The notes beneath the pieces were generated by a model that saw only the letters and a program-made list of their open reading frames with translations, was not told the DNA's origin and made no database searches. Shown here one piece after another: positions 26,796 to 57,326 of a stretch of 64,000 bases of DNA. The position numbers and the translations under genes are program-made. Source of the DNA: an uncultured Pseudomonadota bacterium (lineage in GTDB: Bacteria; Pseudomonadota; Alphaproteobacteria; Rs-D84). The first letter of the stretch is position 1; each line of letters starts with the position of its first letter. Location of the stretch: NCBI GenBank assembly GCA_900320405.1, contig OOHM01000001.1:90209-154208 (forward strand). Direction: 5' to 3'.

Positions 26796-26824
26796 AAAAC
26801 GGAATCAAAAGATTCCGTTTTTTT
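26796..26824. repeat. Terminator hairpin, copy 1 of a duplicated 29-nt sequence (copy 2 at 28885-28918)
   Basis: aaaacggaatc-aaaa-gattccgttttttt here versus aaaacggaatc-aatc-gattccgttttttttt in copy 2. Confidence 0.85.
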
Positions 26825-28884: not shown

Positions 28885-28918
28885 AAAACGGAATCAATCG
28901 ATTCCGTTTTTTTTTAAT
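28885..28918. repeat. Terminator hairpin, copy 2 (see 26796-26824)
   Basis: Near-identical to copy 1 except for the loop. It directly abuts attL of the island. Confidence 0.85.
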
Positions 28919-28938
28919 CCTGGTGCCAGTTGTCGGAC
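28914..28938. repeat. attL: displaced copy of the tRNA-Thr 3' end
   Basis: tttttaatCctggtgccagttgtcggac here versus tttttaatTctggtgccagttgtcggac at 38194-38218. A second, degenerate copy ctggtgccGgttgAGgga lies at 28952-28969. Confidence 0.85.
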
Positions 28939-29146
28939 CAATACCGAGATAACTGGTGCCGGTTGAGGGAATAATGCCATCCCAAAAAACCAGCGCAAAA
29001 CTGCCCTAAAAATGACAATTTTGACATAAAAACACTAAAATGCCTGACACTTTGCTTGGCACTTTTATAAAATAACACGATTTTTGGGAAAAGTACACTG
29101 TTTTTGTTGTTTATAAAGGATGAAACAAACCGCTTGATTTTATCGG

Positions 29147-31798: not shown

Positions 31799-31868
31799 AC
31801 AAAAGTTAATGAACGAACTAACAAATGACACGCCAAGAATTATTAGCAAACAAAAAATATATAAGCGC

Positions 31869-31897
31869 TTGACTTTTATGAAAACACATATTATAAT
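31869..31897 (+). promoter_or_regulatory. Near-consensus sigma70 promoter inside the island
   Basis: TTGACT, 17-nt spacer, TATAAT, then RBS ggaggt and GTG at 31925. Confidence 0.65.
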
Positions 31898-31924
31898 ACC
31901 TGTGATTTAAAAACGGAGGTCAAA

Positions 31925-32359
31925 GTGGCTTTTGAAAGATTTTCGCAGGTTGGGCAAATTTTTAGGGCCAAAGCGTCGATATCGACATTTGGTATGTTAA
32001 GTTTTAGTTCTGGGGCCAGACAACGTTTCAACATAGATGAAACCAAATATAAATTTGGGGCATTGTTTTTTGATCCGGACACACGAATAATCGGAGTCAA
32101 ATTGTTAGAAACAGATGACGGACAAGGGGTTGTGAATCTGAGATACAGGGACAAGGGTCTTGACTTGGCAATTAAATCTTTTCTTGAGTATTATAATATA
32201 TTGCCCCAGCAAACAAGTTTGTACGAGATAGAAAAAGATGAGCAAACAGATATGTTGCTTGTGAAGTTAAATACAGCAAAGGCACGAAAAACAGGTAAAG
32301 ATACGCCATGTAATAAAGAGGTTAATAGTAATAATGGTGATACTGGAAGCTCTGTATGA
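31925..32359 (+). CDS. Hypothetical protein (144 aa), island cargo
   Basis: GTG start behind a strong promoter and RBS. No family recognised. The C-terminal tail is hydrophilic. Confidence 0.55.
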   Translation: MAFERFSQVGQIFRAKASISTFGMLSFSSGARQRFNIDETKYKFGALFFDPDTRIIGVKLLETDDGQGVVNLRYRDKGLDLAIKSFLEYYNILPQQTSLYEIEKDEQTDMLLVKLNTAKARKTGKDTPCNKEVNSNNGDTGSSV

Positions 32360-32493
32360 AAGAAATAAAACACCCTGCTGCAACAGGGTGAATTATCGGG
32401 ACATGTCCCAGGTTATCTTCATAATAACTCAAACTTATTATAACCTGTCTCGAAAACAAATGCAACAGAAAGTTGCTCTTCGGTCAAAGGGAT

Positions 32494-32805
32494 ATGATCG
32501 AATACAAAAAATGGCAGGATACAATCATGCTGATAACTGCACGAAACTTGCCTGGTTATAGATATAATCAGGATGTACCGTCAGGATATGAATCTTGGCT
32601 GGATTACTGGCAAAAAAGACGCGGTTTGATTGCGGGCACTTGTCGGTGTTGCGGAAAACATTGCAATGATTTGGTCGGTGGTCATGTGGAGGCGGTCGGT
32701 TACAACGGTTTTTATATTGTACCATTATGTGCAAGTTGTAATAGCCGAGAAAATCGACGAACTTTCTATGTGGACGATCAAGATTTTGTAAAGGTTGTAC
32801 GCTAA
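32494..32805 (+). CDS. Small Cys-rich protein with an HNH/beta-beta-alpha-Me-like signature
   Basis: CRCCGKHCNDLVGGHV...YIVPLCASCNSRENR (CxxC...H...CxxCN). The start is uncertain (TTG 32473, ATG 32494 or ATG 32527). Confidence 0.5.
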   Translation: MIEYKKWQDTIMLITARNLPGYRYNQDVPSGYESWLDYWQKRRGLIAGTCRCCGKHCNDLVGGHVEAVGYNGFYIVPLCASCNSRENRRTFYVDDQDFVKVVR

Positions 32806-33023
32806 AGTAGTACCGGATTTAAAATTTTAAATCCGGTATCTTTTTATCATATTGGCGTAAAGAGCATTATAAACTATTTAAATCTAATAGTTTATTCGTA
32901 ATAACCTATTCAAATTAAATAGTAAATTATTAAAAATGGCGGATTTTAGCCATTTTTTTGTGTGCAAAGCAGTTTTTGTACGGTAGGATTATACCTGTAA
33001 TGATAAAACAAAGAGGTATAATC

Positions 33024-33302
33024 ATGACAAAAAACTTTAAAAATTGGTTAATTAACAACGGTTATAAACTGTTTACGGCAAACAATCAACCATCCACCGT
33101 ATTCGATTATTTGACCGGTGTAAAATATGTATGTCAGTGGGAAAATAAGACAATTGAGCAGTTAGCAGATTCAATATCTGATGTTTTACCACGATACTTT
33201 GACGGCGGTGAACACTATGTCCGTGGTCGTATGAAAAGTCGTGCCGTTAGATGTGGATTGCGTCAGTTTAATAAATTTGTTATGGAATCAAAGGTTGCAT
33301 AA
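33024..33302 (+). CDS. Hypothetical protein (92 aa), island cargo
   Basis: ATG preceded by aagagg. Flanked by AT-rich repeats containing AAATAGT. Confidence 0.5.
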   Translation: MTKNFKNWLINNGYKLFTANNQPSTVFDYLTGVKYVCQWENKTIEQLADSISDVLPRYFDGGEHYVRGRMKSRAVRCGLRQFNKFVMESKVA

Positions 33303-33368
33303 GAAATTTATAAACTATATCAAATAAATAGTTAATTAAATTTACCACCAAACCAAAGGATGAATAAT

Positions 33369-33509
33369 ATGAGTTGCAGTTGCTTTAAACTTATTGCAAA
33401 TGGGATTACTTTACCTGATATTTACTTTCGGTATGACCAAGCATGCCAAGCCAGACAAAAATTAAAAGATAATAACATTGCGATGTCAGTTAATATCGTT
33501 AATGCATAA
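33369..33509 (+). CDS. Possible 46-aa micro-ORF
   Basis: MSCSCFKLIANGITLPDIYFRYDQACQARQKLKDNNIAMSVNIVNA. RBS-like aaagga upstream; hairpin accaccaacgtaaaaattggtggt downstream. Confidence 0.3.
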   Translation: MSCSCFKLIANGITLPDIYFRYDQACQARQKLKDNNIAMSVNIVNA

Positions 33510-33608
33510 AAAAGACCACCAACGTAAAAATTGGTGGTTTTTAATTACTGTGTCCAGATTTAGTTCAGAATTGCCCCAATTTTATTTGATGTATAAGTTA
33601 TCAAAATT

Positions 33609-34193
33609 TCAAATTGGAGCGGTCTGGATTTGATTCTGTGATTGTGGGATGTGCGTTGGTGACTTCTGCGAAAGGTTGAACAATATTTCAGATGTAATTA
33701 TGCGGTCAGAGTCAATGTGATAATTTACGTTTGATTTAAATTCTTTGGTTGGGTATGAACATCCACCTTCATCATTAACCGGTTCGATATGCAATACTTC
33801 TTGGGGTAAATTTAATCGTGTCGAAACATTGCATATCGCTAATTGGATTTCAAAAAAAGTAAAGGGGCAGTTATAAATTAAAATATGGTAATGCCAATTT
33901 ACCGATTTACCGTGTTCAGCAACAGCAAAAAAAGGGATGTGTTTACGATTCCAATGACGACCAAGTAATACTTTTTCAAAAATGGACATTATTTGGTGCA
34001 GATTTGTTTCGTTTTTTTCTAAGTTGACCGAACGACGATATTTTGGAAATTGAATCGATAAAAAATATTGGGGATTATAATCTTTGAACCATGAATATAG
34101 TGTTTTTTTAGTTTCGGTGGTTTTATTGGTATCAAGGCGTATATAATTCATAGTCATTTTTATAATCCCCGGTTTTAATTTAGGATATAACAT
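33609..34193 (-). CDS. HUH-type rolling-circle Rep-like protein (inovirus Gp2-like)
   Basis: YFLSIQF (motif 1-like), NWHYHILIY (HUH) and SYPTKEF (YxxK). The alternative ATG at 34157 has a better RBS. Confidence 0.55.
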   Translation of the reverse strand: MLYPKLKPGIIKMTMNYIRLDTNKTTETKKTLYSWFKDYNPQYFLSIQFPKYRRSVNLEKNETNLHQIMSIFEKVLLGRHWNRKHIPFFAVAEHGKSVNWHYHILIYNCPFTFFEIQLAICNVSTRLNLPQEVLHIEPVNDEGGCSYPTKEFKSNVNYHIDSDRIITSEILFNLSQKSPTHIPQSQNQIQTAPI

Positions 34194-34677
34194 AACAAAC
34201 GCTTACTTTGGTTTTTATGTTGTATTTTCAGCGTTTTTTCATGTTATTCGGACAGGGGGTTAACAATCACAGCGATTTGCAGACCTATGACACCAACCAC
34301 ACCTTATATTATATTGAACCGTTCCACGTGCCGAAACAGTATCCGGACCAACTTTTAACCATTTCGTTTGAACCCGACCGTTTATTTTTTTCTGTTGGCA
34401 TTTTTATTGCTTTTTGTTTTTTTTGCATAAAATTATCAAATCAAAAAATCTTATTTTATTCGTAAAAACAATGTGTTAGACCAATTTCCAGTAATACTTT
34501 TTATATATTTTTCTTTTCGCGCGCGTGTCATCAGGTGCAAAAAGTCATGACCCTTTCATCAAAAAAGTAAGAATTTTTTTAAAATTTTTTCGGGGTCCCC
34601 TGATTTTTACAAATTCTATATATATGCACGGGGAAATTCTGTGCGCGATTTGTTAATAATTTAAAAGGAGTAATACG

Positions 34678-36471
34678 ATGGCGAAGAGTAAAATCTCGTT
34701 GACGCACGAACACGAAAGCATAATTGCTATTTATTGTGCATACAGAAACATTGAATTTAATCAGGCGAACGCGTACGACATCACAATGGAAGCGTTTAAA
34801 GAAAATCCGATTAGGTATAAAACCACGGATGATATTACTGGCGAAGAACGGAATTATAATATCACCCCACGAATTGCAACGTTAATTGAAAGGCAACCCA
34901 AAACGATTGACCGCATTGCTGATAAAATTGAACGCAAAAAAGAAGAAATCCAACAAGAAAAATACAATCAAAATATTGCAAAAGTGAAAGAACGCACCTG
35001 TCCAGACATCAATAAATTGGTGGATAATCTGTATCGGTTGAATCTGGTTGATGAAAAAAGTTATCTTGGGTTAGTTTGTTTTTTAATGCAAGTGAAGTAT
35101 TTACGCGATGGCGAACTCGAACAAGATGATAAATTATGTGCGTTTTTCAACGGTGTTGCACATAACGGTAAATCTGCAACCGCCAAAGCTATTATGAAGG
35201 TAGAAGAACAATATGGCCCAGTATTTAAAGCGAATTCTGTTAAACTTTTATTAGCACCACACGAAGAATTATTATATAAAACCCATGTGGTTTATTTTGA
35301 TGAAGCCAAAGCCAGCGACATAGACCGTGATAAAGTGATAAATTTGATAAATGGTGGCGACATTGAACTTAACCCAAAGAATAAACGACAATATTTATTC
35401 CGCGTGAACACCAACGTCATTTTTGCGTCAAACGATATGGTTTATTTAAGGCAACGACGTGTTGCCACCATTAAATTTGGCAAAAGATTAAACTGCCGCC
35501 CATTAGGCGAAGGCACACTAACGAAAATCATAGCAAATATTATGGATTCTTTGCCAGGTTTCGAACATTACAATGATTTATATCGTGTTGTGTCGATAAA
35601 TAACGAAAATGCCGTCAGTATGGTTGCCATGGCGGATATCTTATCATATATGCATAAATATCTGTATTTCGTATGCCACGGTAATCCACTAACTTTAATG
35701 AACAAAATGTTGCTTACAACAAGCCGTATTTACGAACATATTAAACATTCCCGCAATACCCAGTTGGTTAATCCAGAACGTCGAGAAGCAATCCCGGACG
35801 CATTGGAATATCTGGCAGACCAAGGTTTAATCGACAGAAAAACAGATTATGAAAATTGCACCACGAAGTATTACACGGTATCCGGCGAACAGTATCTGAA
35901 ACTGCGTGCCAAGTATGATGTGATAAACACGAAATATGAAAACATCAGCAAAATTACACGAACAGAATTGTATGATTGTTTGTTGCCATATTTCACCGCA
36001 ATACCAAAACCGGATGAACTGCCCCAGATAGAAATTCCCGAACCAACAGAAGCAGATTATTTTGAAGAAGATGATGACGATACACCATCAAACGAACAAG
36101 CGATTTTACAAACGTCTTGGACCAAAGACCGTGGTGGTATGTTAGCGTTTGAATTGTTGAAACGCGTAAAGCGAGCCGGAGAAACAGCACAATTTTTAAA
36201 TATGAACAGTTATTTTCCCGAAGACGTTCAGCACCTTTTTGACGCATATATGACACCAGAATTTTGTCGAAGTGTTTGTTATAAAGAATTCATGGAAAAC
36301 CTTAGCAAACACGGTGGTACCAACTTTGGCAACACATTCATAACCAGCGTACAGAACATATATATGGATAGGTTGGGTATAACAGACCTGAAAAAACTTG
36401 AAAATTTTGAAGATTTTAAACGGGCCGAAATCAAGAAATTGAACAATGGTACCAGTACACCTACTGAATAA
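34678..36471 (+). CDS. SF3 helicase / P4-D5-VirE-like P-loop replication protein
   Basis: 597 aa. Walker A GVAHNGKSAT, Walker B VVYFDEA, motif C VIFASN. RBS aaaggag. Confidence 0.7.
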   Translation: MAKSKISLTHEHESIIAIYCAYRNIEFNQANAYDITMEAFKENPIRYKTTDDITGEERNYNITPRIATLIERQPKTIDRIADKIERKKEEIQQEKYNQNIAKVKERTCPDINKLVDNLYRLNLVDEKSYLGLVCFLMQVKYLRDGELEQDDKLCAFFNGVAHNGKSATAKAIMKVEEQYGPVFKANSVKLLLAPHEELLYKTHVVYFDEAKASDIDRDKVINLINGGDIELNPKNKRQYLFRVNTNVIFASNDMVYLRQRRVATIKFGKRLNCRPLGEGTLTKIIANIMDSLPGFEHYNDLYRVVSINNENAVSMVAMADILSYMHKYLYFVCHGNPLTLMNKMLLTTSRIYEHIKHSRNTQLVNPERREAIPDALEYLADQGLIDRKTDYENCTTKYYTVSGEQYLKLRAKYDVINTKYENISKITRTELYDCLLPYFTAIPKPDELPQIEIPEPTEADYFEEDDDDTPSNEQAILQTSWTKDRGGMLAFELLKRVKRAGETAQFLNMNSYFPEDVQHLFDAYMTPEFCRSVCYKEFMENLSKHGGTNFGNTFITSVQNIYMDRLGITDLKKLENFEDFKRAEIKKLNNGTSTPTE

Positions 36472-36473
36472 CA

Positions 36474-36499
36474 GGGGTAAATAAATCACTATTTGCCCC
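36474..36499. terminator. Bidirectional hairpin between the helicase-like gene and the integrase
   Basis: ggggtaaata-aatcac-tatttgcccc (10 bp with one G.U pair). Confidence 0.6.
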
Positions 36500-36590
36500 T
36501 AAGCGCGTTTTTTCTAAATTGCATTGGGTCGATATGCATGGATGGTAATATGTGTTTGCAAATTAAATACAGACGACCATCCAGTGCATA

Positions 36591-38063
36591 TTATTTTTTT
36601 GACATCACATCACGCCAATAATCGAATTCTGTTTGCAGGAAATCGTATTGCAGTTTATCGGCCTGGGCTTTAATTTTTAATAAATCGTGGTTCGAATAAG
36701 ATTGTTGTCGTGTGCTTCTGCCTTCCCAACCGATAATGTCGTTAATAAATGTTTCAGATACCCCAACTTCTTCCAACCGTTGATTGGCATTTTTACGCAG
36801 TGAGTGGAAATCAAGTTTGTTTGGGTTGTTATCTGTTATGCCGATATCTTTGATGTATTTAATAAAACCACGGGTCATGAATTTATTGTTATATCCACCA
36901 GATTCAGTTTGACAGGTAGGAAAAATAAAATCAGTATCTTTGGCTTTAAATTTAGCCTTTTGATTTTGAAAATACGTAACAAAGCCCATATCCAATAATT
37001 GTTTTGGAATAGGGACAGTTCTGCGTGACGCATCATTTTTTAATTGTTTAATCGGATGCGTGTCTTGGAATTTAAGGCAATCGATACCATCAACATTTAC
37101 TATGTCTGCATATTGCAATGTGATTGCAGCATTAGTTCGTGCACCTAAAAACAGTCCAATCATTACAGACCAAAACATATGTGGGTTCTTGTTGAAATAA
37201 TCATTTTTAATATTAAATATTTGTTTTAATTCGTCGTTTGTATATGGCCAGTGCGGTTTTCTTTCGTTCTTTCTGGTCTTTTTGAATTCTGGTATCAGGT
37301 TCAGCAAATTGGTTTTATATGTATCGGGGTCAATATAATTTGCATGGTTGATTAAATTTTTAATTTCACGTGCATGATTTCTTTTCACGGTGCCGGTAAC
37401 ATTCATGGCCGTTATATTATCGCACATCTTTTGGATAATATCAGGTTGATAAAAACTGGAATACTTGTCGTCAATACTCAGCCCGACATTTTGAATCATT
37501 TTAGTAATCAGTGTCCGTCTGTTTTGTTCAACGTTTTTCACATTGCCTGCTTTTTTCAGCATGGATTCCATTATTTCTTTGATAGTGTGATTTGAATTTG
37601 GATTTGATTTCGGTTTTGGAACAGCACCGATACTTATTAAATAATCACCAACGTATTTCGCAAAAGTTTTCATGAATTCTTGGTCTGCTTTTGGAAGTGA
37701 TGATAAATCCAATTCTTTTGAAACGATTTCCAAAGCACCTTTAAGGACGGTTGGGTCAGTTTTTGGTGATATACGAATTACTTCTGTGCCATCAGGGTTG
37801 GTATATTTATCAAAAACCATTTTTCTCATAATGATTTTTGCTGCAACCACATAGGCTTTCGCTTCGTAATCTTTTCTGCTTATACTTTCTGCCATAATTT
37901 TTGCCTTTTCCTGTGCTTCATAATAATTGGTCGTATGCAAAGATTTACATAAATACCGTCTTTTGCCGTTTTCACGTGGTAATTCAACCATATAATAAAA
38001 AACGTTATTTCGTATCCACAGATGTTTATCTGCTTGACACTTTGACTGACACTTTTTGAACAT
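36591..38063 (-). CDS. int: Tyrosine site-specific integrase
   Basis: 490 aa. GARTNAAITLQYADI (Arg), FHSLRKNANQRL (HxxR) and a ...RQQSYSNHD C-terminal Tyr region. Adjacent to tRNA-Thr. Confidence 0.9.
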   Translation of the reverse strand: MFKKCQSKCQADKHLWIRNNVFYYMVELPRENGKRRYLCKSLHTTNYYEAQEKAKIMAESISRKDYEAKAYVVAAKIIMRKMVFDKYTNPDGTEVIRISPKTDPTVLKGALEIVSKELDLSSLPKADQEFMKTFAKYVGDYLISIGAVPKPKSNPNSNHTIKEIMESMLKKAGNVKNVEQNRRTLITKMIQNVGLSIDDKYSSFYQPDIIQKMCDNITAMNVTGTVKRNHAREIKNLINHANYIDPDTYKTNLLNLIPEFKKTRKNERKPHWPYTNDELKQIFNIKNDYFNKNPHMFWSVMIGLFLGARTNAAITLQYADIVNVDGIDCLKFQDTHPIKQLKNDASRRTVPIPKQLLDMGFVTYFQNQKAKFKAKDTDFIFPTCQTESGGYNNKFMTRGFIKYIKDIGITDNNPNKLDFHSLRKNANQRLEEVGVSETFINDIIGWEGRSTRQQSYSNHDLLKIKAQADKLQYDFLQTEFDYWRDVMSKK

Positions 38064-38193
38064 AGGTATCTATCCTTTATTTTTCAAGTGGGCCAATGCA
38101 AAAAAGTGTTGGATTTCCAATGTTTTTATGATTCTGTGATTTTTGAATCATGACAAAAGAAAAACCGACGATAGTGTCGGTTTTCTAATGTTT

Positions 38194-38218
38194 TTAATTC
38201 TGGTGCCAGTTGTCGGAC
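38194..38218. repeat. attR, overlapping the 3' end of the intact tRNA-Thr
   Basis: Direct repeat of 28914-28938 (24 of 25 nt). Confidence 0.85.
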
Positions 38219-38276
38219 TTGAACCAACGACCCTCTGATTACAAATCAGATGCTCTACCAGCTGAGCTAAACTGGC
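38201..38276 (-). tRNA. tRNA-Thr (anticodon UGU)
   Basis: Reverse complement is GCCAGTTTAGCTCAGCTGGTAGAGCATCTGATTTGTAATCAGAGGGTCGTTGGTTCAAGTCCGACAACTGGCACCA. It has a perfect 7-bp acceptor stem and anticodon loop TTTGTAA. Confidence 0.92.
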
Positions 38277-47082: not shown

Positions 47083-47883
47083 ATGCCAATTATTCTGAAC
47101 CCGATTTCACCCGTTGCGTTTACGGTCTTTGGACTGCCAATTCGTTGGTATGCGTTGGCATATATCGCGGCGTTTGTAATCGGGTATTTTTTGTTTCGCG
47201 CCTTTGCACGTCGCCGCGATAGTGGTCTAAATATGTCACGCCACGAATTGGACGATTTGTTTTCGTGGATAATATTGGGCGTAATAATCGGTGGACGGTT
47301 GGGGTATGTATTGTTTTATAATTTGCCATTCTTTTTGGCGCACCCGTTGGAGATATTCGCCGTATGGCACGGCGGTATGAGTTTTCATGGTGGGTTAATT
47401 GGTGTTGTTGCCGCAACATTTTTGTTCACGCGTTCATGGACGCGGGGGCTGCGCGTGTTGGATTTGATATCGGTTGCCGCGCCGATTGGTTTGTTCTTTG
47501 GACGCATTGCGAATTTTATAAATATGGAAATAATGGGTCGCCCAACGGATTCGCGCATCGGTGTATTCTTTAATGGCGTGTCCGATGTTCCCCGCCACGC
47601 CAGTCCACTGTACGAGGCCGCAACCGAAGGTTTATTGCTGTTTATAATAATGCTGTGTCTGTACCGTTATACAAAATTGCGCCGGTCCCCGGGTGCGCTG
47701 TGCGGTGCGATGGCGATGTTTTATGCGGTATTCCGTATTATCTGTGAACAATTCCGCGCACCCGACGCACAAATCGGTTTCCTGACCAGTTGGGGCCTGA
47801 CAATGGGAACACTGTTGTCGTCTATAATGTTCCTGGGCGGTGCTGGATTATTTTACTTTGCAATCAAAAATTCCAAAAAGTAA
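47083..47883 (+). CDS. lgt: Prolipoprotein diacylglyceryl transferase
   Basis: 266 aa. IRWYALAYI, WHGGMSFHGGLIG, GRIANFIN.E..GRPT. Confidence 0.92.
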   Translation: MPIILNPISPVAFTVFGLPIRWYALAYIAAFVIGYFLFRAFARRRDSGLNMSRHELDDLFSWIILGVIIGGRLGYVLFYNLPFFLAHPLEIFAVWHGGMSFHGGLIGVVAATFLFTRSWTRGLRVLDLISVAAPIGLFFGRIANFINMEIMGRPTDSRIGVFFNGVSDVPRHASPLYEAATEGLLLFIIMLCLYRYTKLRRSPGALCGAMAMFYAVFRIICEQFRAPDAQIGFLTSWGLTMGTLLSSIMFLGGAGLFYFAIKNSKK

Positions 47884-47945: not shown

Positions 47946-48022
47946 GGGGTGTTAGCTCAGCTGGTTAGAGCGTCTGCCTGTCACGCAGAAGGTCGAGGGT
48001 TCGAGCCCCTTACATCCCGCCA
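47946..48022 (+). tRNA. tRNA-Asp (anticodon GUC)
   Basis: GGGGTGTTAGCTCAGCTGGTTAGAGCG...CCTGTCACGCAG...GGTTCGAGCCCCTTACATCCCGCCA. Confidence 0.93.
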
Positions 48023-48041: not shown

Positions 48042-48116
48042 GGCCCCATCGTCTAATGGTTAGGACACCGCCCTTTCAAGGCGAGAATCCCGGTTCAAAT
48101 CCGAGTGGGGCTGCCA
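48042..48116 (+). tRNA. tRNA-Glu (anticodon UUC)
   Basis: GGCCCCATCGTCTAATGGTTAGGACACCGCCCTTTCAAGGCGAGAATCCCGGTTCAAATCCGAGTGGGGCTGCCA. Confidence 0.93.
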
Positions 48117-48122
48117 AGAATC

Positions 48123-48151
48123 AAAAAACACCACCTTGTGTGGTGTTTTTT
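48123..48151 (+). terminator. Terminator after the tRNA-Asp/Glu pair
   Basis: acaccac-cttgt-gtggtgt followed by T5. Confidence 0.75.
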
Positions 48152-48269
48152 AATTCTTTTGATATCCCGTCGGATTGGAACCGCGGTTCACAATGAGTAG
48201 CAGAGCGACAAAGTCGCGATGCGTCAGGAATGCCGCGCAGTCGCGGCGCATTTATGCGACGGACGAGCG

Positions 48270-48290
48270 AAATCCGAGTGGGGCTGCCAA
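48270..48290 (+). repeat. Perfect 21-nt direct repeat of the tRNA-Glu 3' end (48097-48117)
   Basis: aaatccgagtggggctgccaa occurs twice, and again followed by a hairpin (atacccgaatgggtat + T-run). Confidence 0.9.
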
Positions 48291-48525
48291 AAATTAAAAA
48301 TACCCGAATGGGTATTTTTTATTTTTGGTTAAAAAGCCCCCACGAGGATTGCGCAAGAGTGTCAACGGCACGACAAGTGCCGTTTGAAAACGCAGTTTTC
48401 GTGGGCAGTCGCCCACATAGACATGCATGGTGAAAACGCAGACGAACAATTAGCAAACCCGCAAAAACGGATATGTTTAATAGAGTTTTTGCACCTGGGT
48501 TTGATTATTGTTTGTCAAGGAAGCG

Positions 48526-48538
48526 GTGGGGCTGCCAA
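48526..48538 (+). repeat. Third, shorter copy of the tRNA-Glu 3' end
   Basis: gtggggctgccaa followed by aaataaaagaccaccgttttggtagtcttttt. Confidence 0.75.
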
Positions 48539-48567
48539 AATAAAAGACCACCGTTTTGGTAGTCTTT

Positions 48568-48819
48568 TTATTTTTTCCATCTTTTTAATGTCGGATATAT
48601 TTTTTGACAATATTCACGCATTTGATCACCAGTCATGTTTGCCTGATATGCGAACGGAACCATCATTTCGATGTATTCTTCCATAGTTGCTTGTTGAAGG
48701 AATTGACCATCTTTATAGCAATAAATACAATAATCTGAATTTTTAGAACCGTCTTTGTTTGTTCCAAATACAGATTCACCGTTCATCGGCATAGCACAGC
48801 TTTGACATATTTTTTGCAT
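48568..48819 (-). CDS. Zinc-ribbon domain protein (83 aa)
   Basis: MQKICQSCAMPM...SDYCIYCY (CxxC...CxxC). TTGCAA-16-TATAAT promoter-like hexamers upstream. Confidence 0.7.
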   Translation of the reverse strand: MQKICQSCAMPMNGESVFGTNKDGSKNSDYCIYCYKDGQFLQQATMEEYIEMMVPFAYQANMTGDQMREYCQKIYPTLKRWKK

Positions 48820-48885
48820 GAAACTTCCTTTGTTTATACAGACATTATATCAAGACTTATTGCAGTTGCAAGTTGTAACAACATC

Positions 48886-48959
48886 TTAACATCTTTCCCG
48901 AACAACAACAAATCATAGATAGTATCATCTCGTGAATTGCACAGATGGCCCTGCCAAAA
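48886..48959 (+). repeat. 74-nt array unit A (18-nt box + 26-nt variable part + 30-nt box)
   Basis: ttaacatctttcccgaac - N26 - tcgtgaattgcacagatggccctgccaaaa. Confidence 0.85.
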
Positions 48960-49037
48960 TAAAAAGACCACCATTTCACACATTTACGAACTATTAAAAA
49001 GAAAGGTTAGAAATCCAACCTTTTACTTTGTTCGTAT

Positions 49038-49826
49038 TTATCTTTGCAGTTTGTTATCAGGACGAATATTCTGTATATCCTGATTTAACTTATATACACC
49101 TGAACCTGGTTTAGATATAATTTCTGTCATAATCTGCTTGTCTCCATCTGATTGAATCATAATAGCAGCAGGTTCATCAACACCATACCCAAATTTAGAT
49201 TCTCTGACCAACATTTTTTTGACAACATCTTTGGAAGTGGCTTCTTTATCTATGCCTTTTTCTGGTTTTTTGTTCCAATGTGGGCAGAAATAACCTTTTA
49301 CAAAGCCCAAAGCACGTTTAGTTGTAAATGTTGCTTCTGTGCCATCAAAATCTTCATCTTCACCATTATCATAATATTCAAACCAAACACAACCACCCGC
49401 ACTATTACCAGACATAATAATACCCTTATCGTATGCTTCTTGTAATATTTTATCTGTGCCAGAATCTTTTAGTGCCTTCATCAAACGTGTTACATTGCCA
49501 CCACCGACATAAACAATGTCTGCGTCCATAATCAATTCACGAATTTGTTCGGTACTTGGTCTTTGTGCCAAATCTGTCAGAATCAGATTTTTAGCAATAC
49601 ACCCCAGACGGCCTTCGAACACATCTCTAACAGCGGGAAAATAAGTAGGCTTATCATTGCTAGCCGCACCAATAAAAACTAATACGGGATGTTCTTTACC
49701 AGTTAATTTAACAATTTTTCTATCGGATTGTTCGGTATCCCAAGGTTTTTGTTCACGATGACCATCTTCGTGAATTTTGATTCTGCCCATTTCGCCACCA
49801 CCAATCGCAATTATCGTTTTTATCAT
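49038..49826 (-). CDS. Peptidase S51 (dipeptidase E / cyanophycinase-like) family protein
   Basis: 262 aa. IIAIGGGE N-terminus, VGGGNVTRL and SGNSAGG nucleophile context. Confidence 0.78.
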   Translation of the reverse strand: MIKTIIAIGGGEMGRIKIHEDGHREQKPWDTEQSDRKIVKLTGKEHPVLVFIGAASNDKPTYFPAVRDVFEGRLGCIAKNLILTDLAQRPSTEQIRELIMDADIVYVGGGNVTRLMKALKDSGTDKILQEAYDKGIIMSGNSAGGCVWFEYYDNGEDEDFDGTEATFTTKRALGFVKGYFCPHWNKKPEKGIDKEATSKDVVKKMLVRESKFGYGVDEPAAIMIQSDGDKQIMTEIISKPGSGVYKLNQDIQNIRPDNKLQR

Positions 49827-49899
49827 TTTTCGCCTCTTGCTAATGCGATATTATACTGCAACATTTTATAGTAAAAATCAAACTTTATTCAAAAACAAC

Positions 49900-49973
49900 T
49901 TAACATCTTTCCCGAACCGCAACAGGTCGCGTGTAAAATCAACTTGTGAATTGCACAGATGGCCCTGCCAAAA
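49900..49973 (+). repeat. 74-nt array unit B
   Basis: The 18-nt box is identical to unit A. The 30-nt box differs at one position. The 26-nt centre is unrelated. Confidence 0.85.
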
Positions 49974-50005
49974 ATCAAGACACCGCATAAGGCGGTGTTT
50001 TTTAT

Positions 50006-50374
50006 TTAATCTGCGCAACTATATGAATATGCTTCTGGCATTCTATATAAATTATTTGTTACGGCATCAACAAATATGGGTATTATACCAAAAAATATGC
50101 CTGGAATTATATCTAAAAATACCGCACCAGAATTTAACTCGCGTTCGACATTAACTTGAGAACAATTTGCATTTTTGGTCTGAATAGAAATATGTTCTTT
50201 AGAATATATACTGATATTATTGTTTGGTTTAACTTTGTATATGCCACTATCAGATGTAACAGTTATCGTATCATCCGAATTATTGTAAACCATAGTTTTA
50301 TGATTACTACCGATTCCAATAGCCCCACAGGCTGATAGTGCTAACATAGATATTAATACCAAAATCTTTTTCAT
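50006..50374 (-). CDS. Small lipoprotein (122 aa)
   Basis: MKKILVLISMLALSAC lipobox. C-terminal hydrophobic stretch FLDIIPGIFFGIIPIFV. Confidence 0.65.
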   Translation of the reverse strand: MKKILVLISMLALSACGAIGIGSNHKTMVYNNSDDTITVTSDSGIYKVKPNNNISIYSKEHISIQTKNANCSQVNVERELNSGAVFLDIIPGIFFGIIPIFVDAVTNNLYRMPEAYSYSCAD

Positions 50375-50430
50375 TTTTTATCCTTTTGATTATATTAATA
50401 GTTTATAATATTATCTGTCAGGTTCCAACA

Positions 50431-51213
50431 CTAATCCAACACTCTATCTTTGCCCAACATATCTTTTATCTTTTCGACGTGTTCGGCTTGTGTATCTGTA
50501 TTATTTCCATTATCAACAGCAGATTTTAAGATTTTCACAATTTCCCGTTTGTCTGTATATTCTGCTTCGTCATTGTCAAAAATAATATCCAAAACATCAC
50601 CCAATCTGTGCGGTTTTATCACAAATGTTCCGTCTGGTATAAAATTGATATCTCTTAATTCGCTATCACCATAAAAAACGACCACAGAATAAAATGGTAA
50701 ATTAGCAAATTGTTTTGATTGTTTTTGTAATACTTTTATATGTGATTCATTTTGTAACACAGGGTTATAAAAACGATAAGTATGTTTTTTGCGGTGATAT
50801 TTATCATAGAAACTTTGTGTCCACTTTGTATCTTTTGCACGACCAAAAATCCATCCAGAATAGTCTTTAACTTCAAAAACTATCAAACCGACTTTTGTTG
50901 CAACAACTATATCTATTTGGGTTGATTTGTTTTCACCATTTTTCAGCATCAAATCATGAAAAATTGCCTTTGGCGAAATACCGTAATCCAGCAAAGAACC
51001 TATTAAATCGCGTTCTGATTGCGTTCCGCGTTCTTCTGATGTTATCTCATCAAGTCTATTATCATGAGTCTTTTGATAAACTACATTATCTCTCCGATAA
51101 ACATTGTTATACGTATAATTGTATACGTGTCGCTTCTTACCGTGGTAATTAATTCCAAGTAAAGCACCTAAAATAATAAATATTAACTTGAATATTAATT
51201 TGATTATTCTCAT
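50431..51213 (-). CDS. NERD (nuclease-related domain) protein with an N-terminal membrane anchor
   Basis: 260 aa. IDIVVATKVGLIVFEVKDYSG...NPVLQNESH pattern of NERD domains. N-terminal IIKLIFKLIFIILGALLG. Confidence 0.78.
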   Translation of the reverse strand: MRIIKLIFKLIFIILGALLGINYHGKKRHVYNYTYNNVYRRDNVVYQKTHDNRLDEITSEERGTQSERDLIGSLLDYGISPKAIFHDLMLKNGENKSTQIDIVVATKVGLIVFEVKDYSGWIFGRAKDTKWTQSFYDKYHRKKHTYRFYNPVLQNESHIKVLQKQSKQFANLPFYSVVVFYGDSELRDINFIPDGTFVIKPHRLGDVLDIIFDNDEAEYTDKREIVKILKSAVDNGNNTDTQAEHVEKIKDMLGKDRVLD

Positions 51214-51285
51214 AACAAAAACAATCCTATCAAAAAACTCCTAAATTTCAAATATATTTATTGTTTAAAATCTATCAAAAATATG

Positions 51286-51358
51286 TTTGCTTCTTTCTGA
51301 AACAATAACAAATCATGTATCTTATCTGTTTGTGAATTATTTAATTTGTCCCGGAAGT
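51286..51358 (+). repeat. Degenerate array unit C
   Basis: tttgcttctttctgaaac...aacaaatcat...ttgtgaatta... aligns with unit A but has many substitutions. Confidence 0.55.
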
Positions 51359-51367
51359 GTAAAGCAA

Positions 51368-51916
51368 TTATCTCTTTGGTTTATAAACGGTATGACCATG
51401 TGCCACATAATCTTTTAAAACTTGTTCGCCCGCATCCGTTTCAATTTGTCCATAAACGGTTATGCCACGTTTTTTGAATTCGTTATACCAGTTTTGTTTG
51501 AAACCTTCGTCAAATCCGGTGATTTTTGTGACACGTTCAGATGGAACCCCGTAATAAATCGCCTTTATCCCGGACCACATAATTGCCCCCAGGCACATCA
51601 TACACGGTTCAGATGTCACATATATACTTAAATTATACGGCGATAAATCATAATTCCCCAATTTCTTTTCCGCTAACTTTATCGCGTTTATTTCGGCGTG
51701 ATTATTACTGCAAGATTTATCCACGACATTATTGGCGGCCTTGGCGACAAGATTGCCGTTTGAATCATAAACAGCGGCCAAAAACGGCCCATAACCTTTG
51801 TCGATATATTTTTTTAATTCTTGTTGTAAATCCAGGATAATTTTACCGGCCCTAATCAGTTTTAGATTATCAATCTTTTCATTGGCAATCACAGATGTTT
51901 TCATATTTTTTTGCAT
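51368..51916 (-). CDS. CDA-fold nucleoside/nucleobase deaminase (guanine-deaminase-like)
   Basis: Start at ATG 51916 (RBS aaggaaa). HAEINAI and PCMMCLGAI zinc motifs. GFDEGF region as in GuaD-type enzymes. Confidence 0.82.
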   Translation of the reverse strand: MQKNMKTSVIANEKIDNLKLIRAGKIILDLQQELKKYIDKGYGPFLAAVYDSNGNLVAKAANNVVDKSCSNNHAEINAIKLAEKKLGNYDLSPYNLSIYVTSEPCMMCLGAIMWSGIKAIYYGVPSERVTKITGFDEGFKQNWYNEFKKRGITVYGQIETDAGEQVLKDYVAHGHTVYKPKR

Positions 51917-51980
51917 GTCGTTTCCTTTTGGGGAAAGTATGACATAATTTGTAATAAATTGCAAAACCTGTCTAAAAAAT

Positions 51981-52050
51981 TTAACATCTTTCCCGAACCG
52001 CAATAATTTGCGTATATCATCATCTCGTGAAATGCTTATGTTATTCTGTT
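51981..52050 (+). repeat. Array unit D (18-nt box intact, 3' box decayed)
   Basis: ttaacatctttcccgaac - N26 - tcgtgaaatgcttatgttattctgttaaa, followed by hairpin accaccaaatggtggt. Confidence 0.75.
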
Positions 52051-52083
52051 AAATAAAACGACCACCAAATGGTGGTTGTTTGA

Positions 52084-52410
52084 TTATTTGCTTTTGTTCT
52101 TTCGTCCGAACAATTCTTGGCGACGGGCCTCGCATGCTGATACAAATGCCCTATAATCTTGCGGTTTCATAAAAAACTGAAAATTTTCGGTACCGTCGTT
52201 TGCAATCGTATAGACAAACCGGGAAGAATAAACCGCATAACTGTTGTCGATACTCCATTTGATTGGGTGTTTGGTGGATGTCTGGAATTCTTCTGGGTCA
52301 ACCTGTTTTGCCACAGTCGCATTTGGAATCAAATTCATCAAATTTTGAACATTTAATTTGTATGTTTCTTGTTTTTCTTTTTCAATTTTATATGGTGTTG
52401 GTCTTTTCAT
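52084..52410 (-). CDS. Hypothetical protein (108 aa), last gene of the array
   Basis: Clean ORF, same strand as the other array genes. No motif recognised. Confidence 0.5.
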   Translation of the reverse strand: MKRPTPYKIEKEKQETYKLNVQNLMNLIPNATVAKQVDPEEFQTSTKHPIKWSIDNSYAVYSSRFVYTIANDGTENFQFFMKPQDYRAFVSACEARRQELFGRKNKSK

Positions 52411-52553: not shown

Positions 52554-53054
52554 ATGAAATTCAGCAATAACGGAATCGAATTATTAAAACAATTAGAAGG
52601 CTGTGTCAAAAAAGGTGACAAACACATTGTCTATGACGATAAAACCGGCCGGCCCGTGGATATCAACGCGCCATTGCCACACGGGGCAACGATTGGCTAT
52701 GGACATTTAATAAAACCGGGCGAAAATTTTTCCGGTGGCATTACCGAACGCGTCGCAACCGAATTATTGCGCGCGGATATCGCGATTGCGGAACGCGCAG
52801 TTCAAAATAACATTACGGTGCCACTGATGCAAAACCAATACGATGCATTGGTGATTTTTGCATATAACATTGGTGCAAATAACTTTGCGAAATCCACGGT
52901 TATAAAATACATCAACAACCCAAATTTCCACAGTTCAATATACCCAAGCCTGGAATCGGCGTGGCGCGCGTGGAATAAATCGGGTGGTCGCGCAATGGGT
53001 GGATTGTCGCGGCGCAGAAACGCGGAATTGCATCTGTTCGTGTATGGGGTTTGA
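52554..53054 (+). CDS. Phage-type lysozyme (GH24-like)
   Basis: Start at ATG 52554. LLKQLEGC...VYDD..G....GYGHLI... and YDALVIFAYNIG are typical of T4/lambda-type lysozymes. Confidence 0.82.
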   Translation: MKFSNNGIELLKQLEGCVKKGDKHIVYDDKTGRPVDINAPLPHGATIGYGHLIKPGENFSGGITERVATELLRADIAIAERAVQNNITVPLMQNQYDALVIFAYNIGANNFAKSTVIKYINNPNFHSSIYPSLESAWRAWNKSGGRAMGGLSRRRNAELHLFVYGV

Positions 53055-55040: not shown

Positions 55041-57272
55041 CTACTTACCAAATTTACCACTTCGTGGGAACCCGACCGGAATGGTTCGACCCTGGGTTGC
55101 ACGTTTGCCAACCCACGGCCGCCAATCGTCCAATTTTGTTGTGCCGCGACCCGTCGTCCAACCAAAACCGTCCGCCGCATTAAAGAACATCACATCCAAC
55201 ACATAGGTTCTTTCGGCATTATATTTCTGTAAAATTACACCCTTGCCGCGAATCATTTCTGGAACTTCAGACGTGTTGAATATTAAAACTTTATCATTTG
55301 ATCCAGACATCGCAACGGTGTCGCCACTGACCGGCACACAAAATGCCGCCGGATTTTTATCGTCAACATTCATAACCTGTTTACCGGTGCGGGTTTGCGC
55401 AACGCAATTTTCGCCGGCCACGATAAATCCATTCCCATGACGTGATACAACCAAATATTTCGCGGTCGTGTCCAGAACAAATGCGCGAACAATATTCTCT
55501 TCGGCACCGATGTCTGCCATCATACGCACAGATTCCCCAAAACCGCGTGCCGACGGTAAATCATTTGCGCATAACGTGAACATACGACCAGACGATCCAA
55601 ACAGATTTATTTTATCGGTGGACATTGCGTGGAACGCGCATTGCAATTCATCGCCTTCTTTGAATTTCAAATCCAACGCGTTCAAATCCAGGTGACCTTT
55701 GGCCGCGCGAATCCAACCCATCGTTGACAATATTATCGTCAATGGTTCTTTTTCGATAAATTCTTCGGCATTTACGGTGACGGTTTCGGTCAAAGGTGCC
55801 CATGTTGTGCGACGGCGTCCCAGTGTGGTCTTTTTATCATATTGTTTTTTTATATCGGCAAACCACGCCTTAATCTGGGCGTTTTGAATTTCTGGATCGC
55901 CCAACAGAGCCAATAATTGTTCGCGTTCCGCGCGCAATTCTTTATCTTCGCGCCGAATTTCCATTTCTTCCAGTTTTCGTAACGCGCGCAGGCGAGTATT
56001 CAAAATTGATTCAACCTGAATGTCGGTCAAATTAAATTCCGCCATCAATACGGCCTTTGGGTCGTCTTCGGTACGGATAATTTCAATCACACGGTCCAAA
56101 TTCAGGTATACAATTAACAACCCGCCCAGAATTTCTAACCGCCGGTCAATGTTCCCCAGACGCCATTTGGAACGCCGTATCAGTACATTCTTTTGGTGTG
56201 CGATAAATTCCAACAAAACATCGCGAATGCCCATAACGCGTGGCGCACCGTTTGAATCGATAACATTGAAATTCATATTGAATTTATATTCGGCGTCCGT
56301 CATCGCGAACAAATGTGCCATCATTTTATCCGCCGGAATATTGCGCGACTTTGGTGTTATAACAATGCGGACATCAGTTGTTGATTCATCCACAATATCG
56401 TCAATCAGTGGTAATTTCTTGGCATCAATCATTTCGCCAATTTGTTCCACCATTTTCGATTTGATAATTCCGTATGGAATTTCGGTAATTACAACCTGGT
56501 ACCCGCCGCGTTCCAATTCTTCAATTTCATACCGCGCACGAATGCGAAACGCGCCACGCCCGGTTTCATAATTCTTAACAATGGTTTCAAAATTATCAAT
56601 TAACACACCGCCCGTTGGAAAATCCGGTCCAATCATTTTTCGCATAATTTGCGCAGTGGTTGATTCTGGTTTATCAACCATCAGTGTTAACGCATCACAA
56701 ACCTCGGCCACATTGTGTGTTGGGATATTTGTCGCCATACCAACCGCGATACCCATTCCCCCGTTCGCCAGCAGGTTTGGAAACGCACCCGGCATAACCA
56801 CCGGTTCAGTTGTGGTGCCGTCAAAGTTCGGCATCATATCGACACTGTCTTCGTCAATGCCGTCCATAATCAGCATTGCCGCATCGGTCATTTTCGATTC
56901 GGTATAACGGTATGCCGCCTGGGGATCGCCGTCAATGTTTCCAAAATTACCCTGGCCATCAATCAATGGGTACCGGACGGAAAAATCCTGGGCCAGGCGA
57001 ACCATCGCATCATACACAGACGAATCGCCATGCGGGTGATAATGCCCCAACACATCACCAACAACCGTTGCACATTTGCGGAACGCGGCCGCGGGCGACA
57101 ATTTTTGCCGCAACATAGAATACAGAATACGCCGATGCACCGGTTTTAAACCATCCCGCACATCGGGCAGGGCGCGCGATACAATCGTACTGACCGCGTA
57201 AGATAAATAGCGCGTGGAAAGCGCGTCTGACAATTGTTGTGAATCAATTCTTTCAATAATTTCTTTTACCAT
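55041..57272 (-). CDS. parC: Type IIA topoisomerase subunit A, most likely topoisomerase IV ParC
   Basis: Start at ATG 57272 (MVKEII...). [32 protein letters not shown], active-site AYRYTE. About 740 aa, shorter than a typical GyrA. Confidence 0.85.
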
Positions 57273-57326
57273 AGCAACATAGAACTTAGAACATTTGAAA
57301 AAAAATAACAACCGAAAAAACGCGGT

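Follow-up and report, generated by a model that had tools for sequence, protein, structure and literature searches.

The 64,000-nt stretch analysed here (the window) is a piece of bacterial chromosome carrying lgt (47083–47883), tRNA-Asp, tRNA-Glu, rpmG and parC (55041–57311), in which a row of small modules directly follows the tRNA-Glu gene. Our comparison of related genomes shows, at the level of sequence, a conserved, single-locus, tRNA-Glu-anchored array of self-contained modules, whose cassettes have turned over and been exchanged between species with no recombinase in cis. A module holds a gene, a pair of genes or a structured non-coding body; modules have been gained, lost, reordered and passed between species, and the array, with conserved units as its junctions, is a shared feature of Candidatus (Ca.) Enterousia-like (Rs-D84) alphaproteobacteria. 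An initial annotation, made from the window alone, had described small modules that follow tRNA-Glu in a single direction and are separated by conserved junctions, and this description is upheld.

Within the window, four co-oriented units of ~86 nt separate the minus-strand genes of the array, each closing in a tRNA-Glu-like core, TGGCCCTGCCA. They emerge as one 83-nt repeat family with copies at 48877, 49891, 51277 and 51972 (identity 100, 82, 61 and 65%), as exact matches to shorter boxes, and as matches to a unit profile built from relatives and then run on the window and on related loci; all three agree on the placement first proposed, except that the 5′ boundary lies 11 nt earlier (tcAAAAAcacc). 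The profile detects unit A at 48875–48960 (E 3e-23), unit B at 49889–49974 (E 1e-22), unit C at 51276–51357 (E 2.5e-6) and unit D at 51973–52053 (E 4e-17), with C degenerate and the core of D decayed, as had already been recognised by inspection. Elsewhere in the window there is a single marginal match (E 0.02), all others falling within 48.9–52.1 kb. Exact copies of the 18-nt box TTAACATCTTTCCCGAAC lie at 48886, 49900 and 51981 (0.06 chance matches expected), in agreement with its reported identity in units A, B and D, and GTGAATTGCACAGATGGCCCTGCCAAAA, which covers 28 nt of a 30-nt box, is exact at 48932 and 49946 (0 expected). The likeness to the tRNA-Glu 3′ end noted earlier is present, but its copy number had been underestimated, since TGGSSCTGCCAA is found five times in the window rather than three (0.04 expected); the additional copies of the tRNA-Glu 3′ end, at 48279 and 48527, form the ends of two non-coding modules, here called X and Y, which separate that tRNA from unit A.

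Between the 18-nt and 30-nt boxes, the 26-nt spacer is indeed of fixed length (36 aligned copies contain almost no indels), but it is not the unrelated sequence it was taken to be: its consensus, nnCAACAAATCAyGnATAnnATCAnC, has several columns that are at least 90% conserved. The array is also more AT-rich than its surroundings, as had been observed, with a GC content of 0.32–0.40 against 0.42–0.46 in the flanks. Terminator-like hairpins are in excess (13 versus 3.1 ± 1.5 in shuffles) and stand 3′ of tRNA-Glu, unit B and unit D, so the terminator hairpin assigned to every unit holds for B and D but is truncated in unit A, where half a terminator is left and the actual terminator of the adjacent S51 peptidase gene lies at 49002–49023. 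Similarly, the proposal that cassettes carry their own promoters is confirmed for a promoter-like TTGCAA-16-TATAAT with an upstream TG at 48871–48844 on the minus strand, but sites of this kind show no overall enrichment (27 versus 20 ± 5).

To place the array in a wider context, we scanned a species-genome collection (one genome per species) for the exact 18-nt box, which occurs at 32 places, ~19 of them in Ca. Enterousia or other alphaproteobacterial gut or rumen metagenome-assembled genomes (MAGs). About 17 exact matches would be expected by chance, by our estimate from the size of the collection, which is close to the number in unrelated taxa; in the real ones the whole unit is conserved. 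A scan of metagenomes added ~17 loci. Across the loci collected from relatives (given L-numbers below), the profile recovers 78 units in 35 loci, in arrays of 2–6 units that are never mixed in orientation and have a median spacing of 863 bp. Where tRNA-Glu is present in the locus (18 loci), 38 of the 39 units stand downstream of this gene in the same orientation. The sole exception to this co-orientation, at 6314–6393 of L015, is a unit that is inverted relative to tRNA-Glu together with its adjoining gene, which suggests a local inversion between junctions. At its far border the array usually meets a lysozyme/tRNA-Leu region, and the unit is limited to one locus per genome, each genome having yielded one contig region with the exact box.

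All host organisms are Ca. Enterousia-like alphaproteobacteria of the order Rs-D84, with genomes below ~1 Mb. Ca. Enterousia and its relatives have genomes of 0.75–1.0 Mb, among the smallest of free gut bacteria (PMC12306168), and the array of the window is carried on one 916-kb scaffold. The initial annotation had reasoned that a simple local duplication would leave the boxes absent elsewhere and the locus invariant among relatives; instead, many relatives have the boxes, and the content and order of their arrays differ. Four short contigs from independent assemblies of the species of the window (L035–L038) end 110–280 nt after lgt, inside the tRNA-Asp/tRNA-Glu/module X region, and these ends may be repeat-induced assembly breaks or strain variation at the start of the array.

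The canonical junction, read on the plus strand, opens with an arm of ~86 nt (AAAAACACC, the 18-nt box, the 26-nt spacer and TCGTGAATTGCACAG), continues through the tRNA-3′-end-like core, an A-run, a hairpin whose sequence varies and a T-run, and ends in a right arm made up of CTTTGTTTTCyAATAC, TTTCACGAGTTCGTAAGTT, a hairpin and ACATTTACGAACT, often with a second, bidirectional terminator, the whole junction spanning ~200 nt. In the right arm, aligned from 15 copies, an inverted copy of a 10-mer is followed by a second palindromic block. The gap from arm to right arm is constant at 50–55 nt in 17 junctions, and at least five unrelated hairpin sequences are found inside it. Read on the gene strand, the same junction runs from the terminator of the upstream gene through the arm and an extended −10 promoter into the next gene, and in about half of the cassettes in relatives this extended −10 (TGnTATAAT) stands at a fixed distance from the unit. 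A terminator of identical type and a right arm also follow the genuine tRNA-Glu in L009, L004, L015 and L003, which means that the unit stands where the body of the tRNA would be.

Past the hairpin, the arm 10-mer AACTCGTGAA is matched by TTCACGAGTT, and the two form in-register inverted repeats at a fixed distance in which 90% of cells are complementary, a value that drops to at most 55% when the pairing is slid. The initial annotation had held that the boxes are not inverted complements of each other, which overlooks this 10-mer of the 30-nt box, found again in inverted form beyond the terminator. Covariation was not found between the two 10-mers, and because it is lacking they look like duplex recognition sites and not like a selected stem.

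RNAalifold returns 0 conserved pairs in 36 aligned units; folds of single copies lie close to those of shuffled sequences in five of six strand folds (z +0.3 to −1.0; −2.3 for the minus strand of D), and a fold of the whole junction yields a trivial 4-bp pairing only. The earlier judgement that the site is not an attC is thereby borne out, with no attC-like fold in the unit or across the whole junction. Rfam gives no match to the unit even at E ≤5, the tRNAs being the only matches, and a promoter scan found no consistent plus-strand promoter at the units.

We also considered, and rejected, a protein-coding role for the unit. Its minus strand can be read as FWQGHLCNSRxDxIxDLLxFGKDVKxFLxxL* with few stops, but the ratio of nonsynonymous to synonymous polymorphism (pN/pS) of 0.62 is no better than that of three other frames, and what looks like a conserved stop is simply the TGA within the TGnTATAAT promoter. 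Searching 5.8 billion proteins with a profile revealed no parent protein, only 105 open reading frames (ORFs) of 32–90 amino acids (aa). These database proteins (P0001–P0105), predicted by public gene callers, overlie the minus-strand unit, in the window at 48834–48983 and 49878–50018 on the minus strand, and are probably spurious ORFs, having neither a coding signal nor a conserved start; in one of them, P0083, a DnaB_C fragment is fused to the unit. A dif-like nature of the 18-nt box was likewise dismissed, the box having, by eye, only a half-site likeness (ATGTTAA) and no dyad.

The cargo of the arrays is diverse, comprising 81 ORFs in 55 families, of which 37 are singletons, with 73% of the ORFs on the strand opposite to the units. 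Pfam names among the cargo include GNAT, methyltransferases, an APH-type kinase, C5 DNA methylase, pyruvyl transferase, a BspA-type LRR protein, an ABC-F ATPase, hydrolases and a thioesterase, and many cargo proteins have no family. Near-identical cassettes in diverged genomes imply recent movement: the Zn-ribbon cassette is 97–98% identical by BLAST (~99% in the gene body, by eye) among the window, L012, L026, L053 and L059, while the backbones of the window and L026 are 85.5% identical. The deaminase cassette is 85% identical on the L012 contig, where its order with the Zn-ribbon cassette is swapped, and its neighbours differ in L009, L011, L012 and L046. L009 has two extra cassettes between the NERD gene, itself 87% identical to that of the window, and the deaminase gene, L046 retains the arrangement NERD-unit-deaminase, and another cassette comes first after the tRNA in L043 and is internal in L008.

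Where the ends of such modules can be located, many are sharply defined. In ~10 junctions, the boundaries of modules that are 95–99% identical (the left end of the Zn-ribbon cassette and both ends of module Y) fall within (C)TGCCA(A), at which point the left arms, whether unit, X or Y, are mutually non-homologous and the shared core measures just 12–14 nt. Because the boundaries are this precise with so little sequence in common, a site-specific event at or near the CCA is favoured. The breakpoints of the Zn-ribbon cassette lie at (T/C)GCCAAAA and after the 18-nt box.

The non-coding module Y (48290–48537, plus strand), which has a structured body, belongs to a tRNA-flanking structured family. 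It is ~95–97% identical to copies in L023, L006 and L016 in BLAST high-scoring segment pairs, with further copies in L041, L004, L046, L039, L008 and L060. An alignment of 12 family members supports 24 pairs, 14 of them with compensatory changes, and 94% of cells pair; the covariation score of 0.414 was reached in none of 500 shuffles (0.183 ± 0.021) and falls to at most 0.083 when the alignment is slid. The G-U pairs give a slight preference to the plus strand. In the species-genome scan, a degenerate 29-nt pattern of the Y core (~0.01 chance matches, by our own estimate) occurs in at least 119 stretches, and among the matches listed all belong to Enterousia-like MAGs, with several per genome.

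These elements (loci L068–L181 and window 48290–48537) are multi-copy and are found only beside tRNA genes. In one pass over 77 loci (L068–L144), the conserved motif lies 65–140 nt downstream of, and co-oriented with, tRNA-Glu (20), Gln (16), Ser (6), Pro (5), Tyr (5) and Arg (4). Each element of this ~190-nt family is laid out as CCA, a hairpin, an inverted copy of the tRNA end, a structured body of ~150 nt and a direct copy of the tRNA end that takes in its NCCA, with a terminator 3′ of each, and tandem runs of 2–3 elements occur. In 72 elements located close to a tRNA, we compared the 5′ arm with the reverse complement of the 14 nt that precede the NCCA of a tRNA: 11.9 of 14 positions agree for the cognate tRNA and 7.3 of 14 for non-cognate tRNAs. 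In 54 of the 72, the last 10 nt of the neighbouring tRNA recur at the 3′ end of the element. Ends that are cognate to the local tRNA could not have arisen by homologous recombination spreading the elements from one origin. The gene-carrying cassettes follow the same plan, with a pseudo-tRNA arm. ARAGORN and Rfam do not recognise the structured elements, and a literature search turned up no described equivalent of either the array or these elements. A transfer-messenger RNA identity was rejected for modules X and Y: a mini-frame (ANTQTNN*) is present at the place of the tag, but there is no T arm, several copies per genome occur at six tRNAs, and ARAGORN and Rfam are negative. Right-arm-like sequence (..AAGTTCGAAAGTTA..) was also observed after a structured element at tRNA-Gln (L096, L098 and L103), so cassette-type junctions may reach beyond the tRNA-Glu locus.

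Taken together, we tentatively favour a reading in which recombinase-less mini-elements enter next to the CCA and recreate their target, after which junction-to-junction homologous recombination shuffles them; an alternative offered in the initial annotation, serial integration of mini-islands, comes close to it. A module would insert directly after a (pseudo-)tRNA CCA end and would bring its own left-end hairpin and a right-end copy of the tRNA end, so that each insertion would recreate the target and the array would grow in tandem. The enzyme would act in trans, and homologous recombination between junctions of ~80% similarity would shuffle and replace modules. Possible, though rather doubtful, is a wider proposal, namely that Rs-D84/Enterousia host a new class of recombinase-less mini-elements that insert after a tRNA CCA, carry tRNA-end copies and accumulate in tandem, with the ~190-nt form at six or more tRNAs and gene-carrying derivatives making up the tRNA-Glu platform. 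Such elements would consist of a left-end hairpin, an inverted copy of the tRNA 3′ half and a right-end direct copy of the tRNA end, and would be mobilised in trans, perhaps by way of folded single strands resembling the end of the tRNA gene, by analogy with CTX-phi mimicking dif.

Several observations weigh against the favoured reading. No recombinase was found in the 35 array loci by reading translated ORFs (in ~28 multi-gene loci), by Pfam searches with 26 proteins encoded in the arrays (6 in that of the window and 20 in related ones) or by tblastn with the window's own integrase, with no general tyrosine/serine-recombinase profile run on all ORFs, and this tblastn, directed at 19 loci and 114 further tRNA-flanking loci (831 kb), gave no match. 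The lone exception is a partial resolvase/invertase-type serine recombinase at 2–274 of L039, inside the array and cut by the contig end. Accordingly, the search for boxes with a linked recombinase that the initial annotation had proposed located the boxes in many relatives but, apart from this fragment, no recombinase linked to them; its statement that none lies between 48.1 and 52.5 kb is supported by Pfam for the six array genes and both flanking genes. Nor was a helper element seen at tRNA-Glu in any of the loci examined. Relatives of the window integrase reside at tRNA-Thr, Tyr and Gly, not Glu, with no unit nearby. Neither circular nor free forms were seen. The 18-nt box is absent from 2.9 million viral contigs, and a phage or plasmid vector was rejected on this ground. 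The agent at the array acts in trans, or it is general recombination.

Also to be set against this reading, the array is identical in at least 17 contigs of the same species (identical Lgt protein, same six genes), so turnover is slow; the comparison of strains suggested in the initial annotation thus revealed differences in cassette content and order between species but none between strains of one species. Of four recent exchanges, three break on the promoter side directly after the 18-nt box, and of the other left-end breaks one lies at the start of the right arm and one within it. The right-hand unit that the window shares with L026 is a hybrid, with full identity up to the end of the 18-nt box and, past it, no more than the ~75–80% similarity of any two units (by eye). 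Breakpoints in several conserved blocks are the pattern that would be expected of homologous recombination in the longest identical stretches, and since they extend beyond one site, at least some of the shuffling is accounted for by ordinary exchange between homologous junction blocks. A folded-strand mechanism appears unsupported for the gene-carrying cassettes, because the unit has no conserved fold and the inverted 10-mers do not covary. On this evidence, a site-specific event and homologous recombination both seem to have acted.

The homologous component could in principle suffice, with PeSL-like terminator-promoter junctions (described below) duplicated locally and then recombined by a RecA-type process after uptake of related Enterousia DNA, and no site-specific step today. 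We consider this somewhat unlikely, even though recent exchanges break in all four conserved blocks (18-nt box, core, proximal and distal right arm), the hybrid unit loses identity just after the 18-nt box, truncated units end at scattered profile positions (30–57) as illegitimate events would leave them, terminators are enriched with an extended −10 at a fixed distance in about half of the cassettes, and the recombinase search was negative. What it leaves unexplained is the tRNA 3′-end copy at junction ends and the same architecture with cognate ends at six tRNAs, and the ~10 boundaries that map to a 12–14-nt core between non-homologous left arms also speak against it. Another alternative, in which ordinary integrase-carrying islands integrated serially at tRNA-Glu, then decayed to one gene each and left their P-arm and core as the unit, with nothing mobile now, is unlikely. 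Direct repeats of a tRNA 3′ end are a classic mark of integration, and the window itself holds a tRNA-Thr element with a 28-nt repeat and an integrase; decay or truncation affects units C and D as well as many units of relatives, and serial integration, scattered partial tRNAs and degenerate remnants are known from tycheposons (bioRxiv 10.1101/2020.12.28.424599). Random decay, however, would not yield modules so uniformly tiny or a junction geometry so constant, no integrase or fragment of one was seen in the 35 array loci, and the near-identical cassettes in diverged genomes point to recent movement.

Among readings that dispense with mobility, the unit could be a shared control region, a platform bound by one regulator or silencer of foreign AT-rich genes, duplicated or recruited locally, with its tRNA likeness incidental. 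Its position just upstream of gene promoters, with the 18-nt box ~20–40 nt upstream of the extended −10 (our own count, in representative junctions), the roughly helical spacing of the conserved blocks, and the inverted 10-mers, which flank a terminator without covariation and so may be recognised as duplex DNA, would all fit; yet the core is common to the real tRNA-Glu end and module boundaries map to it, and duplication of genes does not explain repeats beside cargo genes that have no relation to one another. A regulatory role, being compatible with one in recombination, would explain the conservation of the unit and not the array, and we regard it as improbable when taken alone. Still less probable is the suggestion made in the initial annotation that the plus-strand unit is a small RNA (sRNA) with a tRNA-like CCA end: plus-strand terminators do stand 3′ of units, and the neighbouring Y-type modules, which end in the same core, behave like structured RNA, but the unit fails in every respect examined above (conserved pairs, folding relative to shuffles, Rfam and plus-strand promoter). 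A canonical integron whose attC sites and IntI had been missed can practically be dismissed; unidirectional cassettes with sites conserved at the ends and variable in the middle invite the comparison, but Pfam finds no IntI or tyrosine recombinase next to the array (in the window array and its flanking genes, and in 20 proteins from relatives), neither the unit nor the whole junction folds into a hairpin, most cassettes have a promoter-like site just upstream of the gene, and the ~200-nt junctions end in a tRNA-like core.

Like integron arrays, the array is a one-way row of single-gene modules with junctions conserved at their ends and variable in the middle, and with diverse cargo specific to strain or species; unlike them, it lacks IntI and a folding attC, gives each cassette its own promoter and terminator where integron cassettes are promoterless and expressed from a common promoter (Pc), and is anchored at a tRNA 3′ end and not at attI. 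Modules bounded by pdif sites carry 28-bp XerC-spacer-XerD sites in alternating orientation, and integrative mobile elements exploiting Xer (IMEXs), such as CTX-phi, use a chromosomal enzyme in trans, with two inverted copies of the site folding to mimic the target. The array resembles these in having no recombinase in sight and in building up in tandem at one site, and its tRNA-end copy, hairpin and inverted copy may be seen as a parallel to CTX-phi, but the unit consensus has, by eye, no 11-6-11 XerC/D site, and units share one orientation. Non-autonomous IS200/IS605-type palindrome-associated transposable elements (PATEs) and other single-strand HUH transposons insert in strict orientation directly 3′ of a short target, have subterminal hairpins, do not duplicate the target and depend on a transposase gene located elsewhere. 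These traits and possible tandem runs are common to both, whereas the left-end hairpins of the array vary in sequence, its ends copy 10–19 nt of the neighbouring tRNA, and no TnpA or HUH transposase was linked to the arrays. In contrast to repetitive extragenic palindromic (REP) elements and bacterial interspersed mosaic elements (BIMEs), REPINs and miniature inverted-repeat transposable elements (MITEs), the unit is not scattered but restricted to one locus per genome, and Y-type elements are multi-copy but occur only beside tRNA genes.

Closer in setting are the tycheposon islands of Prochlorococcus, in which a streamlined genome likewise has a tRNA-anchored variable island and partial tRNA 3′ ends mark successive tandem insertions, the older of which are displaced outward. 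Tycheposons carry integrases and replication modules and measure several kb (bioRxiv 10.1101/2020.12.28.424599), whereas array modules are 0.4–2 kb, have no recombinase and share a uniform composite junction with an arm conserved across species. One hallmark of tRNA islands, direct tRNA 3′-end repeats bounding inserted DNA, is present (TGGSSCTGCCAA five times, and the 20-nt copy at 48270–48289); the other, an integrase carried by the element, usually together with replication or excision genes, was not detected in the 35 unit-bearing loci by ORF reading, Pfam and tblastn, with no general profile. Cis-mobilizable elements (CIMEs) of Firmicutes are decayed integrative and conjugative or integrative and mobilizable elements that have kept their att sites, lost their integration genes and are found next to a functional helper, so that the integrase of a related element could in principle mobilise them (PMC5704250). 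Array modules are similarly arranged in tandem at the 3′ end of the target gene, each bounded by cores and encoding no recombinase, but they look built to one plan and not decayed, and no helper was seen at tRNA-Glu loci. Promoter early stem-loop (PeSL) motifs of T4-type phages, ~50–70 bp combinations of promoter and stem-loop, surround non-essential ORFs in hyperplastic regions, form mini-circles and recombine to produce insertion, deletion and replacement without a dedicated recombinase (PMC2839356, PMC4122927). With these the array shares composite promoter-terminator junctions around single ORFs, a single orientation and mosaic breakpoints inside the junction; it differs in lying on a bacterial chromosome, at a single locus and anchored to a tRNA, and PeSLs have no tRNA-like core. 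In operation the array resembles an integron or a CIME/tycheposon accretion site, and its junctions act much as PeSLs do, but it lacks a defining feature of each: IntI and attC for integrons, an integrase in the element for tycheposons, a phage setting for PeSLs and Xer sites for pdif modules. We file it as a tRNA-anchored accretion of integrative modules.

The individual parts of the locus follow one another closely. Downstream of tRNA-Asp(gtc) (47946–48022, plus strand) and tRNA-Glu(ttc) (48042–48116, plus strand), both identified by ARAGORN and as Rfam tRNAs (68 and 55 bits), the tRNA-Glu 3′ end TGGGGCTGCCA at 48106–48116 on the plus strand serves as the anchor and first core. Module X (48117–48289, plus strand) is non-coding and contains a terminator (48123–48151), a diverged inverted copy of the tRNA-Glu T-arm/acceptor (~48160–48189) and a 20-nt repeat of the tRNA-Glu 3′ end in direct orientation (48270–48289); its inverted repeat has 50-nt arms that are 76% complementary, its direct repeat is 94% identical, and it holds a conserved piece, ATGAGTAGCAGAGCG..., which recurs directly after unit cores in L009, L012, L017 and L032. 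Module Y follows, with its terminator at 48296–48319 and the third core at its end (48527–48537). Cassette 1 (48538–48960, minus strand) consists of a terminator, a Zn_ribbon_2 gene (48568–48819, minus strand; Pfam 8.7e-30), the promoter and unit A, the core of which lies at 48946–48956 on the plus strand. Overlapping this core is a right-arm remnant at 48952–49057 (plus strand; right-arm profile, RARM, E 1e-26), which includes the bidirectional S51 terminator and from which the proximal half, with the inverted 10-mer, has been deleted.

Cassette 2 (49038–49974, minus strand) comprises the Peptidase_S51 gene (49038–49826, minus strand; Pfam 5.2e-34) and unit B, with its core at 49960–49970 on the plus strand. 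Cassette 3 (49977–51357, minus strand) contains a terminator (49977–50001), an ORF for a 122-aa putative lipoprotein (50006–50374, minus strand), which has no Pfam family and, by eye, an N-terminal hydrophobic stretch and a Cys, the NERD gene (50431–51213, minus strand; Pfam 2.2e-24) and unit C. Cassette 4 (51368–52081, minus strand) is formed by a MafB19/dCMP-type deaminase gene (51368–51916, minus strand; Pfam MafB19-deam 2.4e-16), unit D and a terminator (52056–52081). A distal gene for a 108-aa orphan (52084–52410, minus strand) has a promoter-like TTGACA-16-TAAAAT at 52460–52433 and homologues in L009 and L016, and the right flank starts with a Phage_lysozyme gene (52554–53054, plus strand). 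The gene identities first assigned to the array agree with Pfam, none of them being a recombinase, with the lipoprotein signal judged by eye. Reading the array as a defence island was rejected, PADLOC giving weak domain-level matches only, for the NERD protein and the deaminase.

About 10 kb from the array lies a tyrosine integrase gene (36591–38063, minus strand) that belongs to a 9.3-kb element (28911–38218) at tRNA-Thr(tgt) (38201–38276, minus strand), bounded by 28-nt direct repeats at 28911–28938 and 38191–38218. The element carries a DUF5906 protein, a Rep ORF2/G2P-like protein, replication genes and a DpnII restriction-modification system with two methylases and an endonuclease (29306–31798). 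We rejected its integrase as the enzyme of the array, given that it serves the tRNA-Thr element and that its relatives sit at other tRNAs without the unit. A 99% identical integrase is found in the MAG of L062, and because the tRNA-Glu contig of this MAG (L023) matches the 479-aa flank of the window over only 63 nt at 84%, the tRNA-Thr island has probably moved recently between diverged genomes. Beside the distal repeat of this element, in low-GC DNA, two copies (93%) of a 29-nt terminator-like palindrome at 26796–26824 and 28885–28913 bracket two glycosyltransferase genes, GT8 (27130–28038) and GT-D (28054–28863), and the bracketed pair may be another small inserted block.

To our knowledge, no dedicated route of gene acquisition was previously known in Ca. 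Enterousia and its relatives. The array gives them a compact, conserved platform: accessory genes come in singly, each equipped with a promoter and a terminator, stay together at one site and pass between species without a recombinase in cis, the cargo including peptidases, a NERD protein, deaminases, methyltransferases, kinases and many orphans. The structured elements beside tRNA genes would represent either a new sRNA family that mimics the acceptor/T helix of the neighbouring tRNA or the minimal form of a new mobile DNA. If entry into the array is site-specific, it would constitute a second, independent answer to the problem that integrons solve, one that is anchored at tRNA ends and usable in genomes too small for mobile-element machinery.

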